Of a stretch of 56,802 nucleotides of DNA, positions 3,058-50,232 are shown one piece after another. The position numbers and the translations under genes are program-made. How positions within the stretch are numbered: the first letter of the stretch is position 1; each line of letters starts with the position of its first letter. The stretch spans positions 1 to 56,802 of IMG/VR virus record IMGVR_UViG_3300049053_000110; one strand, written 5' to 3'. Below the pieces are notes generated by a model. The model did not search any database. It had not been told where the DNA came from and was given only the letters and a program-made list of their open reading frames with translations. The stretch comes from a virus. Taxonomy: Duplodnaviria; Caudoviricetes.

Positions 3058-4020
3058 ATGCCCATTTTAAAACAATCAGAACCGTTACCGAAAAGGCCGG
3101 TAATCATTTTAATTTATGGCGAACCTGGTATTGGTAAAACTTCTCTTGCCAATACATCTCATGAGCCTTTACTTATCGACTTCGACAGAGGTAAGGACCG
3201 TGCAATTTTCAGAAAGGACACCCTTGTAGTAAACAAGTGGGAAGATGTGGAAGTTGAAGAGAAAGCAGGAACATTCGCCGGTTACAAAACGATCATCATT
3301 GATACCGCAAAAGCGGCGCTCGATGATTTTTTAATGAGCTACGTGGTGAAGAAAGATTATAAGAATGCGAAAAACAAACTTGCTGCTTATGGTGCTATTG
3401 GTGACGACTTTAAAATATTTGTTTCCAACCGCAGGAGCGAAGATGCGGACATTGTTATTGTCGCACACTCCAAAGATGATAAAGACGGAGAGGTGATAAA
3501 AAAGATACCCGATGTAACGGGCGGCTCTTATCAATTGCTTTTACGCATTGCTGACCAGGTGGGCTATATGAGCATGAAGAACAATAAGCGCACTATCCAA
3601 TGGGAGCCTACGGATAACACCATTGGTAAAAATGTAGCTCGTTTGGGTGTGACAGAAATTCCAGGCGAATCAGATCCAGCAGTGAAAAGTTTAATGGCTA
3701 AAATTATCGACACGGTTAAAAATTCTATTTGCGCAATCTCTGAGGCGCAGAATGAAGCGATACAAAAGGGTGAAAAGATCACGGCTGAAATAGAGGCCTG
3801 CAAATCTCCTGATGATTTGACATTGATACTCCCTACAGTGAATGCGTTACCCAAGGTTCAGAAAGAACCACTCCGGTTGAAGATTGCTGCAAAACAAAAA
3901 GCGCAAGGGTGGGAGTGGAATAAAGAGGAGTCGAAATTTTTTGACCCGAAAGCGAAGCAAGCGTCACTCGTCGATCCAGAGCCAGCGGAAACCCAACAGG
4001 AAGAGGAGTTACAGTTCTAA
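3058..4020 (+). CDS. Sak4-like (AAA_24) single-strand annealing ATPase
   Basis: Walker A GEPGIGKT, LLIDFDRG, Walker B IIIDT; phage recombination context. Confidence 0.8.
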   Translation: MPILKQSEPLPKRPVIILIYGEPGIGKTSLANTSHEPLLIDFDRGKDRAIFRKDTLVVNKWEDVEVEEKAGTFAGYKTIIIDTAKAALDDFLMSYVVKKDYKNAKNKLAAYGAIGDDFKIFVSNRRSEDADIVIVAHSKDDKDGEVIKKIPDVTGGSYQLLLRIADQVGYMSMKNNKRTIQWEPTDNTIGKNVARLGVTEIPGESDPAVKSLMAKIIDTVKNSICAISEAQNEAIQKGEKITAEIEACKSPDDLTLILPTVNALPKVQKEPLRLKIAAKQKAQGWEWNKEESKFFDPKAKQASLVDPEPAETQQEEELQF

Positions 4021-17869: not shown

Positions 17870-17944
17870 CGCGGGGTGGAGGAGTGGTTCCTTGCCTCTT
17901 TGACTTGGAGGAGACCGGTAGTTCGATTCTACCCCCCGCAACCA
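17870..17944 (+). tRNA. tRNA with GAC (Val) anticodon on an initiator-type body
   Basis: Acceptor CGCGGGG/CCCCGCA with C1xA72; D-stem GAGG/CCTT; anticodon stem CCTCT/GGAGG with loop TTGACTT; T-arm GGTAG-TTCGATT-CTACC; encoded ACCA end. Confidence 0.88.
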
Positions 17945-17945
17945 G

Positions 17946-17972
17946 AAAAAGGAGCTTTAAACGGCTCTTTTT
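17946..17972 (+). terminator. Terminator after the tRNA
   Basis: AAAAGGAGC..GCTCTTTTT. Confidence 0.5.
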
Positions 17973-19132: not shown

Positions 19133-19555
19133 ATGTTTATTCTAAAATTATATGATCGCAAAGGCAGAGAGTTGAACACGGGCGACATAGTAAAAATATC
19201 GAACGGCAAGTATTTTACTTTTTGGGCAGAGGTAAAGTATCTGCAAAAAGAAAAGGTTATCACTCCGTTCCATACGTTCAGTTTCCATTCCTTCGAAAAA
19301 GTTGACAAGGTTCCTGAAAATGCTACAAAGAGCACTGAGGATCGTTACAATATTTGGTATGTGTATCAGGACGAAGCAGAGGAAGATAAAGAAGCAAATA
19401 AATTCGAACAGTATTTGATGGATTGGCGCATATGCGAGCATTTGTTAGACGATAAGTGTTTTAGGATTGCTTTAATCGAAGGGAAAAATGTCGGCACTGG
19501 TTTTCCTCCAGGTGGTCCAAACGACGAGGCTGCGATGATAGCAGCACACGGTTAA
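19133..19555 (+). CDS. Hypothetical protein with YopX-like motif
   Basis: LYDRKGRELNTGDIV. Confidence 0.55.
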   Translation: MFILKLYDRKGRELNTGDIVKISNGKYFTFWAEVKYLQKEKVITPFHTFSFHSFEKVDKVPENATKSTEDRYNIWYVYQDEAEEDKEANKFEQYLMDWRICEHLLDDKCFRIALIEGKNVGTGFPPGGPNDEAAMIAAHG

Positions 19556-19644: not shown

Positions 19645-20340
19645 ATGGAACTAATAATAAATTTTTCTGGCGGCAAGGATAGTTCGGCAATGCTTGCTTA
19701 TCTGTGTGAAAAATATCCAGAAATTAAAAAGCATGTTGTTTTTGCTGACACCGGATGGGAACATAAAGACGCCGAGGCCTGGTGCCGACAAATAGTTTCA
19801 TCCTTTGGATTGGAATTGCATGTTGTTCGAAATAAGAATAAGACATTGTTGACTATGGCGGAACAGCGAGGCAAGTTTCCAGGCATGCAGCAAAGACAAT
19901 GCACCAGCGATTTAAAACGCGATCCGATTGCCAGTTGGATTCGAAACAATGTAAAAGATAAATTGATCATTAATTGCTTGGGCATTCGTTCTGAAGAAAG
20001 CAGCGGGAGGAAAAAACAAAGAAAGCTAAAGCGGAATAATCGGGAAACAAATTCAATGCGCACTATTTGGGATTGGGCGCCAATTAAAGATTGGACAGAA
20101 AAACAGGTCTTGGAATATCTTGAACAAAAGGGCATACCACTGCATCCCGTGTACAAATACCTGCATCGATTTTCTTGTCGTGTGTGTATTTTCATGCAAG
20201 AGCATGAGATAAAGGCTGTAAGCGAAAATGATCCCGAGGCAATTGATATTATTTCAAACGTGGAGAGGAGAATCAATTTTCACATGACACAAAGCGGCTT
20301 TATTGATGAAATTATCAAACGTCAAGCAATCGTTGCATAA
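19645..20340 (+). CDS. PAPS-reductase-family (adenine nucleotide alpha-hydrolase) protein
   Basis: PP-loop SGGKDS, FADTGWE, CT..LK, GIR.EES..R, PI.DWT, RFSCRVC. Confidence 0.85.
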   Translation: MELIINFSGGKDSSAMLAYLCEKYPEIKKHVVFADTGWEHKDAEAWCRQIVSSFGLELHVVRNKNKTLLTMAEQRGKFPGMQQRQCTSDLKRDPIASWIRNNVKDKLIINCLGIRSEESSGRKKQRKLKRNNRETNSMRTIWDWAPIKDWTEKQVLEYLEQKGIPLHPVYKYLHRFSCRVCIFMQEHEIKAVSENDPEAIDIISNVERRINFHMTQSGFIDEIIKRQAIVA

Positions 20341-20341
20341 A

Positions 20342-20551
20342 ATGAAGAAAAGAAGAAAAAAAGGAAGTGGCGGCTACCGGCCAGGAGCCAAGAGGCCTTT
20401 AAAATACGGAGAGCCTACAGAGATTGTTCGCTTCAGTATTCCCATTTCAAAGACAGATCAAGCTAAAGAGATTATGAAAAAATGGCTAAAACAATTCGAG
20501 GCGCCAAAGGTATCAGGTAAGCCTGACGGCTCTCAACATTATTCTTTATGA
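20342..20551 (+). CDS. Small basic DNA-binding-like protein
   Basis: GGYRPGAKRP..GEPT..RFSIP (RHH-like). Confidence 0.55.
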   Translation: MKKRRKKGSGGYRPGAKRPLKYGEPTEIVRFSIPISKTDQAKEIMKKWLKQFEAPKVSGKPDGSQHYSL

Positions 20552-21252
20552 CAGTATCGAGCGAATATAAAGACAGCACGGAGCTAATGCAGAAAATGGC
20601 AGCACGGACAAATGGAACGTGCTTGCTTGCTTTCAGCACAGGTAAAGATGCTCTTTGCGCATGGGTAGAGCTTAGAAAATACTTTCACACTATTATTCCT
20701 GTTTACTATTATCTGATTCCAAAGCTTTCATTTATTGAGCGGTCGTTGTCATACTACGAGGAGTTTTTTAAAACTAAGATCATAAGGCTTCCCAACACAA
20801 ACTTGTATAAAATGCTCAATTATCAGGTTTATCAAACGCCCTCGACCATAAAAATTATTAATGCATTCGCCCTGCCAATGGTCAACAGAGAGCAATTACT
20901 AGGGTATTTAAAAGAAGATTTAGGATTAGATAAGGAATGCTTTGTTGCCATTGGAAACAGAATGTATGACAACCTTGCCAGATACAGGTCAATAACAAAG
21001 TTTGGCCCTGTTAATCAAAAGAATAAAACATTTTACCCAGTGTATGATTACAAAATAGCAGATGTTCTAAGCTCTATAAAACAAGCAGGGGTGCAATTAC
21101 CTGTGGATTACAGGCTATTTGGAAAAACGTTCGACGGCTTGGATTATCGGTTTTTAAAGCCAATAAAAGAGCAATACCCCGAAGATTTTGAAAAGATCAA
21201 ACAATTTTTCCCATTGGTTCACCTGGAAATTATGCGCTATGAGCAACTTTAA
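20548..21252 (+). CDS. Divergent PP-loop/PAPS-reductase-like protein
   Basis: LLAFSTGKDA PP-loop; LPVDY.LFGKTFDG motif. Confidence 0.65.
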   Translation: MTVSSEYKDSTELMQKMAARTNGTCLLAFSTGKDALCAWVELRKYFHTIIPVYYYLIPKLSFIERSLSYYEEFFKTKIIRLPNTNLYKMLNYQVYQTPSTIKIINAFALPMVNREQLLGYLKEDLGLDKECFVAIGNRMYDNLARYRSITKFGPVNQKNKTFYPVYDYKIADVLSSIKQAGVQLPVDYRLFGKTFDGLDYRFLKPIKEQYPEDFEKIKQFFPLVHLEIMRYEQL

Positions 21253-21646
21253 AATTAAATACGGCAGTCAGGGCGGCAAGAAAAGCATTTTCGTTAAGCA
21301 GCCAAAGACTACCAAAATAGATTACCCTGGCGAGCCAAACTTAGAGGTTGATACAGAGGTTGAGTTAAATGAACTTCAAAAGCAGTTCAGGGAAAAGGCT
21401 AAAAAAGAAGCAGAGTTAAAGGAGAAAAACACGTCTTCCGAGTATTGGTCATGTATCATTTTTGAAAACCAAGAACAGCGGGACAGTCTTTACGAGCTTT
21501 TAGGGTTACGGGAGTCAGATAATCAGTATATAAACGGCAAAAAGCTTATAAGGGCACTAGAATTGAAAATTGCAGAAATAAATGAAAAGGCTCCAGGGAA
21601 ATTCAAGTGCAATAAAGAGTTGCTGGAGCTTTCAATGAAACCATAG
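21239..21646 (+). CDS. Hypothetical protein coupled to the PP-loop gene
   Basis: ATG 21239; SEYW.CIIF...QRD motif. Confidence 0.65.
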   Translation: MSNFKIKYGSQGGKKSIFVKQPKTTKIDYPGEPNLEVDTEVELNELQKQFREKAKKEAELKEKNTSSEYWSCIIFENQEQRDSLYELLGLRESDNQYINGKKLIRALELKIAEINEKAPGKFKCNKELLELSMKP

Positions 21647-21682
21647 TATTTTTATTTTTTAACCATTAAAAATTAAAGTTGA

Positions 21683-21772
21683 GTCAGAAGAAGAATTGAT
21701 TCTACGCTACGCCAACTTTCTGGGTTGAGCGGGCTGTCTTTAACAGGCAGGAGAGGCGTTACAGGTTCTTAA
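21683..21772 (+). CDS. 29-aa Arg/Gly/Ser-rich peptide with proposed GTC start (VRRRIDSTLRQLSGLSGLSLTGRRGVTGS)
   Basis: A-rich leader, then in-frame TGA directly followed by GTC; no ATG in frame. Confidence 0.55.
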   Translation, partial: VRRRIDSTLRQLSGLSGLSLTGRRGVTGS

Positions 21773-21824
21773 TCATTAGCAAGGCTCCACCATAACCGGT
21801 GCGAGCCTTTTCCAATTTACCACC

Positions 21825-22436
21825 ATGAAAAAGAAAGCCACCAGGAAAACCCCACCTAAAGCAAAGCCAAAAAGCTCTGCCAGGGGAAAACATGTGAAAA
21901 AACCTAAGCCGAAATCCACAAAACCAAAACCTCAGCATGTGGATAACGGCAGGAACGAGAAAGGGCAATTCGTTGCGGGCAACGCCGAGGGTCACCGTTT
22001 TGAAGAGGGGCATAAAGATTCTGAAAAGTGGACTCCCGAAACAGTAATACCCGTTATGGAAAAAATGCTCAAGCATCTTACTACTGATCCCATGGCAGAA
22101 GATGAAGGTGACAGTAAACCCATCAACGTGGTTAGAGCCAACGATATAAAGCTCGCCGGAGAAATAAGGTTGATGTTCGGGGTAACAAAACAAAGGTGGG
22201 CTGAATGGATGCAAAAGTTTAAGGATCATGCCGTTATTTCCGACCTCAGTGCGCAAATTATGGAAATCCTTGAGTGCCGTTTGATGTATTCAGGCACTTC
22301 AATGGACACATTTATACTTAAGAATCACTACGATTATACGGACAAGATCGATACTACTTCAAAGGGTAAAGAAGTGGGCACAGCATCATCTTTCCTTGAC
22401 CTATTAAAAGCAGCTTCCCAACAACCGAGTCAATAA
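21825..22436 (+). CDS. terS: Terminase small subunit
   Basis: Directly upstream of TerL; RNEKGQFVAGN and FILKNHYDYTDK motifs. Confidence 0.75.
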   Translation: MKKKATRKTPPKAKPKSSARGKHVKKPKPKSTKPKPQHVDNGRNEKGQFVAGNAEGHRFEEGHKDSEKWTPETVIPVMEKMLKHLTTDPMAEDEGDSKPINVVRANDIKLAGEIRLMFGVTKQRWAEWMQKFKDHAVISDLSAQIMEILECRLMYSGTSMDTFILKNHYDYTDKIDTTSKGKEVGTASSFLDLLKAASQQPSQ

Positions 22437-24057
22437 ACAACAGGCTATACAACAATTGGCCGAATGGCGCAAACCTGGTGGATGGAAACATTTCGCAAGG
22501 ATAGTGCTTGGCGTGAACCTCGATCCTGAACAGGAAGAGATACTCGATGCCGTTCAAATGCATAGCGCTGTGTCGGTTGCTTCCGGTACCGGTAGGGGCA
22601 AAGACTTCGTGGCCGCAGTTGCGGCAATGTGTTTTTTATACCTCACTCCAAAATGGAATGAGAAAGGCGAGCTGGTAGAAAACACCAAGGTAGCCATGAC
22701 AGCACCAACAGGCAGGCAGGTTAAGAACATCATGTTTGCCGAAATCTCACGCATGTTCAACCGGGCCAAGTTCTTACCAGGCAGGCTTACTGGCAATGAT
22801 ATAAGAACAGAAGATGCAGAATGGTTCTTAACAGGCTTCAAGGCCGATGATCATAATACAGAGGCATGGACCGGCTTCCACGCAGTAAATACATTCTTTG
22901 TAGTTACCGAGGCGAGCGGTATGCCCGAACTAATCTTCAATGCCATTGAAGGAAACCTGCAAGGCAATTCACGGATATTGATTGTGTTTAACCCCAACGT
23001 TTCCACCGGCTATGCCGCAGCTTCACAAAGGTCAAAGCATTGGAGGCATTTTAGGCTCGACTCACTCACGGCGCCAAACGTGGTGTATCACAAAGAGATT
23101 GCGGCAGGTACCTACAAAGCTATTCCCGCCCAGGTGGACCACAAATGGGTAAAGGATAGGGTTGAAAAATGGTGCATGCCCATTGCCCAAAGCGATTATA
23201 ATGAAGGCAAGGGAGATTTTTATTTTGAGATTGACGGCATAAACAGGCTATGGAGGCCAAACGATTTGTTCCGCGTGAAAGTCCGGGGCATGTTCCCCGA
23301 AGTCGGCGAAGATGTGCTCGTACCGCTCCACTGGATAGAGCTTGCCAATGACAATTGGCGGGAACACATGGAACAAGGATGGTCACACAAACACAAAGCC
23401 CTTCGCCTTGGCTCTGATATCGCCGGAATGGGAACAGATTCTACTTGTCACTGCTACCGGTTTGGAAGTTTTGTAAAAGAGTTTCGTTCTATCCACTCAG
23501 GAGGCACGGCAAACCACATGCAATCGGCAGGGCATATAGTTTCTGAATTACGTGCAAACACCTCAGAAACAATGCTTGCCCAGTCGTTCATAGATACAAT
23601 TGGCGAAGGTGCCGGCGCTTACTCCCGGGTGCTGGAAGTGTTGGAAGATGATGATATACTTGAAGTAGATAACCAGGTGCACAGCGTAAAGGCGGGAGAG
23701 CGGGCAGAGTATGAAGGCTCAGAGCTTACAGACTCCACCGGCCAATACTATTTTAAAAACATGCGAGCCTTCCTTTATTGGGCAATCCGCGAATGGCTCA
23801 ACCCTGTAAACAAGCACAAGCCATGCCTTCCACCCGATGATGAACTTGCTCAGGAACTAACAGAAACAAAGTGGAAGCTACTTAGTAACGGTATGATTCA
23901 GATTGAGCCGAAGGAAGAACTTAAAGCAAGGATTTCCCGCTCACCGGACAAAGCAGATTCTCTTTCACTCACATTTTACCCATCCGAGGACATACACCGC
24001 AAGGCAAGTCTATCGGGCAATAAAAAAGAAACATCTATTTGGAACAACTTTCAATAA
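22429..24057 (+). CDS. terL: Terminase large subunit (proposed GTC start at 22429; TTG alternative at 22456)
   Basis: Walker A SGTGRGKD, VVTEASG, nuclease motifs GSDIAGMGTD and SPDKADSL. Confidence 0.9.
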   Translation, partial: VNKQQAIQQLAEWRKPGGWKHFARIVLGVNLDPEQEEILDAVQMHSAVSVASGTGRGKDFVAAVAAMCFLYLTPKWNEKGELVENTKVAMTAPTGRQVKNIMFAEISRMFNRAKFLPGRLTGNDIRTEDAEWFLTGFKADDHNTEAWTGFHAVNTFFVVTEASGMPELIFNAIEGNLQGNSRILIVFNPNVSTGYAAASQRSKHWRHFRLDSLTAPNVVYHKEIAAGTYKAIPAQVDHKWVKDRVEKWCMPIAQSDYNEGKGDFYFEIDGINRLWRPNDLFRVKVRGMFPEVGEDVLVPLHWIELANDNWREHMEQGWSHKHKALRLGSDIAGMGTDSTCHCYRFGSFVKEFRSIHSGGTANHMQSAGHIVSELRANTSETMLAQSFIDTIGEGAGAYSRVLEVLEDDDILEVDNQVHSVKAGERAEYEGSELTDSTGQYYFKNMRAFLYWAIREWLNPVNKHKPCLPPDDELAQELTETKWKLLSNGMIQIEPKEELKARISRSPDKADSLSLTFYPSEDIHRKASLSGNKKETSIWNNFQ

Positions 24058-50114: not shown

Positions 50115-50232
50115 ATAAAAACCGGCTGTCCACTATACAGCCGGCATGCATGTAAAACATTTTATAAACAAGCCACCACTCATCCACCTAATGAGTAAGG
50201 GTAGTGAGTGGCAACAAAAATTAGACCGCCTT

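Follow-up and report, generated by a model that had tools for sequence, protein, structure and literature searches.

A GTC-headed 29-codon frame ahead of the terminase genes of a provirus: a likely member of an unnamed family of arginine-rich phage peptides

Organization of the locus

The 29-codon frame analyzed here lies in the IMG/VR record IMGVR_UViG_3300049053_000110, a provirus record of 56.8 kb that was rated 61% complete; the whole stretch of 56,802 nucleotides is called the window. Nearly all long open reading frames (ORFs) of the window were located on the + strand. The frame (21683–21772, + strand), very likely a member of a family of Arg-rich peptides of the type MR...SGS, extended from a GTC first codon to a TAA stop at 21770–21772, and its translation was VRRRIDSTLRQLSGLSGLSLTGRRGVTGS. 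It was located in a 178-nt gap between a gene for a 135-aa protein (21239–21646) and an ORF resembling a small terminase gene (terS; 21825–22436). The order of the genes, all on the same strand, was a PP-loop-like gene (pp2), the 135-aa gene (partner), the 29-codon frame, a hairpin, the terS-like ORF, and the terminase large subunit gene (terL).

The frame was preceded by an A-rich leader free of a Shine-Dalgarno sequence (21667–21682, + strand), which was read directly and ended in an in-frame TGA. The leader was composed of the A-rich stretch TTAAAAATTAAAG (21667–21679) and the TGA (21680–21682), and the GTC followed at 21683–21685. The succession of A-rich leader, TGA-GTC, and 29 codons up to the stop was exactly as described in a first-pass annotation of this DNA. 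That annotation had also read an in-frame stop abutting the GTC, with a TTG at codon 15 as the only conventional alternative, and both were seen in the sequence: the TTG was the sole ATG, GTG, or TTG within the frame, and codon 5 was ATT. The peptide of 29 residues contained six Arg, no Lys, and one Asp, and residue 2 was Arg. It was in register with the upstream 135-aa gene, from which the stops TAG (21644), TAA (21674), and TGA (21680) divided it. Read-through of these three stops from the partner gene was dropped as a route into the frame, the stops being all different, and a +1 shift from the TTG at 21679 was dropped in the absence of a slippery site. No convincing sigma-70 or Bacteroidota-type promoter pattern was found in the gap; TAAAGTTG at 21674–21681 was one mismatch from TAnnTTTG, which we take to be a Bacteroidota-type promoter motif.

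A search of sequencing runs for the window DNA listed one DNA run and no RNA run. This single run (depth ~43) was probably the source sample and not an independent one. A Logan contig of the same run, which represents a second assembly, gave identical letters over 21400–22000; therefore, the GTC was not an artefact of one assembler.

Peptide family in isolated phages

In a tblastn search against isolated phages, ORF52 of the Pasteurella phage Pm86 was 31% identical to the product of 21239–21646 (E 2e-5). The gene order in Pm86 was the PAPS-reductase-like ORF51, ORF52, an unannotated gap of 315 nt, a terS-like gene, and terL. The gap contained two ORFs in tandem. The first (L026 4344–4481) encoded 45 aa, of which the last 34 residues, counted from an internal ATG, read MRRF...SSGS, and the second (L026 4494–4592) encoded 32 aa and read MRGF...RSSGS. 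The module was also found in the Gordonia phages Morgana, Cafasso/Aleemily/ObLaDi, and VanLee, in the Cutibacterium phage CA1NRNZ, and in the Bifidobacterium phage BigBern1, and each contained an Arg/Gly/Ser/Ala-rich ORF of 33–48 aa at the peptide position of the module. Orthologues of pp2 were present in Pm86, CA1NRNZ, BigBern1, and the Gordonia phages. In the Gordonia phages, the peptide gene was located 87–92 nt from the right genome end.

Some of these peptides were deposited as annotated hypothetical proteins of 35–48 aa (Morgana gene 173; Cafasso gene 168, which equals Aleemily 164 and ObLaDi 166; CA1NRNZ XRX15531.1). Those of Pm86 (two), BigBern1 (L029 2219–2320), and VanLee (L033 3037–3147) were missing from the deposited annotation. 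All seven isolated-phage peptides started with ATG behind a Shine-Dalgarno sequence. Eight of the peptides were compared with Pfam and PHROGs, and none had a match to a family in either. The second Pm86 peptide (Pm86b) and the VanLee peptide had RAAGAVRN in common, encoded by different codons. When one lineage at a time was left out of the profile, the Pm86 peptides ranked 1 and 2 of 228 six-frame pieces, and four of seven family members scored better than 95% of their own shuffles. No publication on these peptides was found in the parts of the literature available on phage PAPS reductase and terminase, the C-terminal motif, and small unannotated proteins.

More distant PAPS-reductase genes preceded a gene annotated as ParB-like nuclease (RAP44), as nuclease (LR1), or, after two small genes, as ParB-like (JNU_P7). 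According to the annotation tables, the genes before terS in RAP44 and LR1 were tightly packed and left no space for such an ORF, and JNU_P7 had no annotated terS.

Peptide family in viral contigs

With an alignment of six pp2 orthologues (A3) as the query, 146 relatives were retrieved from IMG/VR, of which the 80 best were kept. The partner gene directly followed pp2 in 79 of the 80 loci. Behind the partner gene, the small ORF that most resembled the family was picked automatically, and a few of these picks were wrong; the true ORFs of loci L073 and L037 were identified by reading their frames. A pick was obtained in 78 of the 79 partner-bearing loci. After removal of duplicates, 52 peptides were left, and 46 of these passed the composition cut-off. 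Most of those loci contained an Arg-rich ORF of 25–50 aa with an ATG, GTG, or TTG start ahead of the terminase genes.

Among the 46 peptides, the start codon was ATG in 37, GTG in five, and TTG in four, and 22 began with MR. The C-terminal endings were SSGS (16), SSST (8), SSGT (4), and TSGS (2), with single cases such as RSGS, MSGT, TQGS, and ASAT. A 13-row alignment gave the consensus MRxRxxRAxxAxRRxxxRxxSAxxGRSSGS, in which M1, R2, R27, and S29 were invariant. The hallmarks of the family were a length of 25–50 residues and a very basic, R/G/S/A-rich composition nearly without K, D, and E. A frame scan with a strict C-terminal motif was positive in 59 of the 79 loci, and its length limits missed several true cases. 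Five DNA variants of one subtype, all of the same length, differed at codon position 3 (51 differences), position 2 (10), and position 1 (4), which corresponded to 47 synonymous and 10 non-synonymous codon differences. By these codon comparisons, the family is under selection at the protein level.

With five terL sequences as queries, tblastn found a terL-like match downstream in 35 of the 80 loci. In all 10 loci sampled from the remainder, terL was identified by PHROGs (phrog_2, 38, 15, 9, and 3717). Since the terL neighbors spanned different families, the module goes with packaging genes whatever their type. The distance from the peptide to the next gene varied from ~0 to 400 nt. Judged from these sequences, a family of Arg-rich phage peptides of ~25–50 residues is widespread and so far unnamed.

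Some members (L063, L064, L068, L070, and L075) had Lys in place of Arg or GKGGKGG-type repeats and kept the SSGS, SSGT, or ASAT ending. In several near-identical contigs (the L052–L062 group vs. L051, L057, L059, and L060), a 164-aa ORF was mapped over the peptide region, in which the 41-aa peptide was still found; overlapping frames or mis-set starts in this group may need a closer look.

Membership of the window's frame in the family

The frame of the window had the same position as the peptides of Pm86, BigBern1, the Gordonia phages, and most of the 79 loci. Its composition was as family-like as only 0.049% of 36,365 28-residue windows drawn from all six frames, and the piece ranked 4th of 987.

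The closest counterpart by sequence was found in L073, a low-GC contig whose partner protein was 36% identical to that of the window. The L073 peptide (1770–1847; ATG-MRRTQQIASQLSQLSGLSGAGVTSY) also followed an A-rich leader without a Shine-Dalgarno sequence. With the L073 peptide as a query, the window frame was first of 1693 six-frame pieces, and with the window peptide as a query, the L073 peptide was first of 11,254 pieces from 80 loci. The score between the two was 49, which was reached by none of 5000 shuffles. Identical residues were found at 13 of 23 aligned positions, eight of them encoded by different codons. The 10 base differences were at codon position 3 (eight) and position 1 (two), with none at position 2. 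This codon-position pattern shows selection on the protein.

The closest pp2 (54% identity) was found in L037, whose peptide (ATG-MRRRRGQILTSRQIRARVRASRSTQGS) also followed a similar A-rich leader. The endings of the window, L037, and L073 peptides were VTGS, TQGS, and VTSY, respectively, and the GS ending already noted in the first-pass annotation corresponds to the last residues of the family hallmark, a C-terminal RSSGS/T, from which VTGS otherwise departs. The conserved frame in relatives and the codon-level conservation that the annotation had proposed to look for were both found, and the unannotated basic peptide that it had predicted was borne out as an unannotated basic peptide gene. 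On the combined evidence of position, composition, and sequence, the frame is very likely a member of the family.

Searches with terL, terS, pp2, or partner as single queries returned only terL relatives of 55–60% identity, which were Emticicia proviruses and environmental contigs, and these resembled the gap neither in nucleotide sequence nor in the peptide. Two of the Emticicia proviruses (L010 3334–3486 and L011 ~3300–3505) contained no module, and a hairpin (21 bp in L010; weaker in L011) was located before terS. An TATATTTG box, which presumably resembles the Bacteroidota -7 element, was common to both and lay after the hairpin and before terS.

Start codon

The GTC of the window aligned with the ATG of both L073 and L037. 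GTC differs from GTG by one base and from ATG by two. Codons that differ from AUG at two positions support initiation in E. coli at trace level, and Bacteroidota rely even more on AUG, without Shine-Dalgarno pairing. All 59 relatives with a strict C-terminal-motif frame had a canonical start, so GTC looks like a mutated start and not like a usage. The proposal that GTC serves as a working start was not borne out, as none of these 59 relatives lacked a canonical start; the window is the exception among its relatives and not, as far as these alignments go, an example of a GTC-start rule. The ATT at codon 5 came after AGAAGAAGA, in which A occupied positions −3, −6, and −9, and is a candidate weak start. 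The copy in the window is probably start-defective and silent or weakly expressed.

PP-loop genes and partner protein

Two consecutive PP-loop genes were present in this phage, a canonical one and the divergent pp2, with an 82-aa ORF of no known family between them. The canonical gene of the PAPS-reductase type (19645–20340, + strand) carried the motif FSGGKDS and matched Pfam PF01507 (E 1.7e-23) and phrog_424 (E 5.7e-50). The pp2 gene (20548–21252, + strand), the first gene of the conserved module, encoded a PP-loop-like protein of 234 aa with a degenerate FSxGKD[AS] motif and matched phrog_2302 (E 1.6e-15). Within the pp2 family, the S, G, K, and D of this loop were invariant, and the second Gly of the pyrophosphate-binding SGGxDS loop was replaced by T, C, L, or R. 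At the corresponding place in Pm86, only the pp2 type was found. No Pfam match, including PAPS_reduct, was obtained for pp2, and its profile had no significant PDB sequence match.

The fold was assigned from a model of the orthologue in L079 (38% identical to the window protein in alignment A4; pLDDT 93), not from the pp2 of the window itself. The model showed a PP-loop ATPase/adenine-nucleotide alpha-hydrolase fold, and its Foldseek matches were TilS, TtuA (including the TtuA–TtuB complex), CysH, GMP synthetase, and LarE, with E values of 2e-6 to 3e-4; NcsA was also among the best matches.

The second gene of the module encoded the partner protein of 135 aa (21239–21646, + strand). It had 17 homologues of 54–100% identity, two of which were named from Chitinophagaceae metagenome-assembled genomes, and the set included P0004–P0019 at 54–67% identity. 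Both pp2 and the partner of the window were full length against their relatives. The partner belonged to no family found; its model (pLDDT 64.8) matched no structure in Foldseek at E ≤0.001, and its sequence matched none in the PDB. Its alignment (A1) found no viral contig and no hit in 401 Bacteroidia genomes; as these were only sampled, absence from the group does not follow. Thus, the "PP-loop gene pair" of the first-pass annotation was correct for 20548–21252, which was PP-loop-like, and not for 21239–21646, which was an unrelated partner with no detectable fold relative. The link of the peptide to the PP-loop neighbor that it had suggested was supported by gene order, pp2 and partner being kept together in 79 of the 80 loci.

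The complex of pp2, partner, and peptide of L079, predicted with alignments, scored 0.29 vs. a mark of 0.32. No enzyme family of ribosomally synthesized and post-translationally modified peptides (RiPPs) was found next to the partner, and the idea of a RiPP precursor was based on gene order alone.

Hairpin and terminase genes

The frame was followed by a terminator-like hairpin (21781–21809, + strand; −17 kcal/mol, z −6.54, reached by 0 of 200 shuffles), after which the sequence read TTTTCC. The hairpin was located 8 nt past the peptide stop, 134 nt past the partner stop, and 15 nt before the ATG of terS. It was followed by only four T, fewer than the scan rule of five T in eight. A strong hairpin with a T-run stood 8–10 nt past the peptide stop in the window, L037, and L073, and the 50 nt after the peptide stop folded to ≤ −12 kcal/mol in 37 of the 59 loci. 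The other intergenic hairpins of this phage were 5–36 nt after gene ends, the five nearest at 5–8 nt. Terminator-like hairpins followed gene ends at 17950, 19076, 19562, 34259, 50122, and 55378, and the hairpin at 50122–50144 ended 1 nt before the next ATG. Two repeats were also seen around the hairpin of the gap, both at chance level for the region searched: a perfect 10-nt complement between the end of the partner gene (21584–21593) and the 3' arm (21803–21812), and a second occurrence at 21587 of AAGGCTCCA from the 5' arm.

The 178-nt gap folded better than its shuffles (z −2.88 to −2.96) and gave the lowest value of 15 gaps folded. This signal came from the hairpin, as the peptide stretch alone gave a z of −1.24, with 24 of 200 shuffles as good. 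Rfam gave no match at gathering over the whole window, and its rows at E up to 10 over 21500–21950 were at chance level. ARAGORN found nothing on the + strand at the gap with default and lax settings.

The terS-like ORF (21825–22436, + strand) was assigned by position only, directly before terL, and had no Pfam, PHROG, or NCBIfam match. The terL gene (22456–24057, + strand) matched phrog_2 (E 2.5e-25), and an SPP1-type portal gene was located downstream of it.

Comparison with known systems

The annotated hypothetical proteins of Morgana, Cafasso, and CA1NRNZ were like the peptide of the window in their position by pp2/partner and by the genome end or terS, in their size, and in their Arg/Gly/Ser/Ala-rich composition. 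They start with M-R from an ATG behind a Shine-Dalgarno sequence, whereas the frame of the window has GTC after an A-rich leader, with Arg as residue 2. They had no demonstrable direct sequence similarity to the window peptide, and none has a name or a Pfam or PHROG family.

In the TtuA–TtuB system of tRNA 2-thiouridine synthesis, a PP-loop enzyme draws the C-terminal tail of a small protein into its active site. In the present case, a small product with a near-invariant C-terminus is encoded beside a PP-loop protein. The model of the pp2 orthologue matched TtuA, including the complex 5gha, with an E value of ~1e-5. TtuB is folded, resembles ubiquitin, and ends in Gly-Gly, whereas the peptides described here are ~30 residues long, basic, and probably disordered, and end in Ser or Thr.

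The pp2 proteins are filed under the phage PAPS reductase families (phrog_424 and phrog_2302; CysH-like), and the fold match to CysH had a TM score of 0.57. They differ from PAPS reductase in having no Pfam PAPS_reduct match and a degenerate PP-loop, SxGKD[AS]. They also occur in a fixed arrangement with the partner and peptide by five terL families, which is a packaging-side and not a sulphur-assimilation context. A prophage PAPS reductase has been discussed in a preprint as a possible sulphur-metabolism gene whose presence was called puzzling (10.64898/2026.02.18.706556).

Two further systems were compared. The short ORFs of attenuator leaders (pyrBI leader and TnaC) end close to a terminator hairpin, beyond which the genes under control begin; the frame of the window likewise ends shortly ahead of a terminator-like hairpin. 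They differ from the present family, in which conservation extends along the entire peptide and spans host phyla; moreover, the peptide is linked to an enzyme pair, and its placement relative to the next gene varies. Microcin C offers a lead only: a very short M-R peptide (MccA) is activated with ATP at its C-terminus by a neighboring enzyme (MccB). However, MccB is E1/ThiF-like and not a PP-loop protein, MccA ends in Asn, and no export or immunity genes were seen in the present case.

Evaluation of the readings

The joint explanation that best accounted for the data, and that is considered rather probable as a whole, combines membership in the family, a damaged GTC start, and a peptide working with the PP-loop enzyme and partner. 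Several points weigh against it. To our knowledge, GTC is not a recognised initiator, and the canonical starts of all 59 relatives have been described above. The codon usage of the frame lay at the 8.6th percentile of real-gene windows, and it ends in VTGS, not RSSGS. Membership was supported by sequence from only one relative, L073; the comparison with the L037 peptide gave no similarity, 4524 of 5000 shuffles being as good. Profiles of 45–47 family peptides placed the window frame at rank 94–160 of 1693, with 1317–1755 of 2000 shuffles as good, and a first profile of seven members placed it at rank 129 of 1693. The family peptides are also low in complexity. In Pm86, a T-run hairpin sets the peptides apart from the partner gene, and the CA1NRNZ peptide is encoded on the strand of terS, opposite pp2 and partner. 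Because the peptide is separated from pp2/partner in these two phages, it could be linked to terS and not to the enzyme.

A stop-free frame of this length is in itself unremarkable, as 29 stop-free codons are expected by chance with a probability of ~0.15 at this composition (an arithmetic estimate). A chance frame, in a spacer holding only the 3' untranslated region of the upstream operon and its terminator, would also explain the missing canonical start and the failure of the family profiles to score the frame. This account is largely refuted and very improbable in view of the reciprocal best match to the syntenic ATG peptide of L073, unmatched by shuffles and marked by synonymous codon differences, and of the composition (p ~5e-4 per window). 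The hairpin, close to the stop of the frame and 134 nt from that of the partner, would in a bare spacer be unlike the other hairpins of the phage. A structured RNA gene or tRNA-like element in place of a coding frame is hardly credible: the low folding value of the gap and a 75-nt cloverleaf-like fold that can be drawn over 21706–21780, with the hairpin behind it, were the points in its favor, yet the z value without the hairpin was unexceptional (−1.24), that of the cloverleaf was −1.36 (21 of 200 shuffles), neither Rfam nor ARAGORN gave a fitting match, and the substitutions relative to L073 followed codon positions and not base pairs.

Whether any peptide is made from this copy is a closer question. 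A recently inactivated pseudogene, with its start lost and no peptide produced, has a chance a little short of even. It would account for the GTC at the place of ATG in L073 and L037, for the absence of a second such case in the other 59 loci, and for the off-consensus VTGS terminus, and it is found in a provirus record of incomplete rating. On the other hand, the frame was otherwise intact with the family composition kept, pp2 and partner were full length, and the consensus at a depth of ~43 showed no variant. The ATT at codon 5 after AGAAGAAGA might also still allow weak initiation.

A regulatory role of the frame would be that of a leader or arrest peptide without a function of its own, in which translation up to the conserved C-terminal codons would govern read-through of the terminator into terS and terL. 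Packaging would then depend on the translation state, for example on the supply of Arg, Ser, or Gly tRNA. The strong hairpin between the peptide stop and the ATG of terS, with no Bacteroidota-type promoter seen between, suits this role, as do the same layout in L037 and L073, the stable folds after the stop in 37 of the 59 loci, and the location of the Pm86 and CA1NRNZ peptides in the transcription unit of terS and not with pp2. Furthermore, stalling peptides such as TnaC and SecM typically have a conserved C-terminus at the stop codon, which is also a feature of this family. However, purifying selection acted along the whole peptide, and the Gordonia gene near the right genome end has no downstream gene in the linear form. 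The distance to the next gene was variable and the peptide followed pp2/partner whatever the terL family, while hairpins 5–8 nt past gene ends are a general habit of the phage. In addition, the copy in the window is without a start although terS must still be expressed. With these points taken together, a leader or arrest peptide is considered unlikely.

Proposed function of the module

Under the preferred joint explanation, the GTC would be a damaged start, and the allele would be silent or expressed at trace level with the rest of the module intact. The peptide of the family would act together with the PP-loop enzyme and the partner when DNA packaging begins, its most likely role being that of a substrate or cofactor of the enzyme, and the hairpin after its stop would end the small operon. 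Enzymes of the PP-loop fold either adenylate a carbonyl or carboxylate group or bind a nucleotide of this kind, and in TtuA, the C-terminal tail of a small protein is taken in. For a peptide encoded next to such an enzyme, a near-invariant C-terminus suggests that the tail is the element recognized. By analogy, this tail would enter the nucleotide-binding site of the enzyme, as the TtuB tail does in TtuA; recognition of the tail by the putative PP-loop enzyme is regarded as possible but doubtful.

A fuller version of this mechanism is speculative and on balance improbable. It would be a three-gene packaging-side module, present in phages of at least three host phyla, in which the PP-loop enzyme, mistakenly classed as a PAPS reductase of sulphur metabolism, would activate the invariant C-terminus of a ribosomally made, Arg-rich peptide of ~30 residues with ATP, helped by the partner. 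As packaging sets in, the activated peptide would be joined to a target, for example DNA, terminase, or a small molecule. If true, it would represent a peptide-tagging or peptide-nucleotide chemistry so far not known from phages.

Implications

The peptide family locked to a PAPS-reductase branch beside the terminase genes is a wider and more interesting result than the GTC frame itself. It is routine to count phage "PAPS reductase" genes among the auxiliary genes of sulphur metabolism, yet a large branch of them occurs in a fixed unit with a partner and a conserved mini-protein. The occurrence of the module beside five terL families suggests a function in DNA packaging or close to it, and the trio can be tested in culturable phages of Gordonia, Bifidobacterium, and Cutibacterium. 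The "empty" 178-nt gap of the window is explained, and the family shows how many conserved genes of fewer than 50 codons are missed by gene callers. The natural allele, in which GTC occupies the place of the start codon, is useful for asking how strict the choice of start codon is in Bacteroidota.

Other observations in the window

A 140-aa protein encoded at 19133–19555 had a weak KOW-motif match over residues 17–42 (E 0.0097, below the Pfam cut-off), with no NusG architecture. ARAGORN called a 96-nt tRNA-Arg(tcg) at 2684–2779 and a tRNA-Val(gac) at 17870–17944, and no Rfam tRNA was found at gathering in the window; the unusual length of the tRNA-Arg may reflect an insert, or the call may be false. 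The motif AGTTCTT(T/A) was found on the + strand at 2361, 2452, 2956, 17973, 29500, 31975, and 52781, twice as AGTTCTTTGAAATAAT. AGTTCTTWNA had seven matches vs. 1.6 expected, and several copies directly followed terminator-like hairpins in the vicinity of the two tRNA genes. The AGTTCTT(T/A) motif may be a phage promoter or a regulator site.

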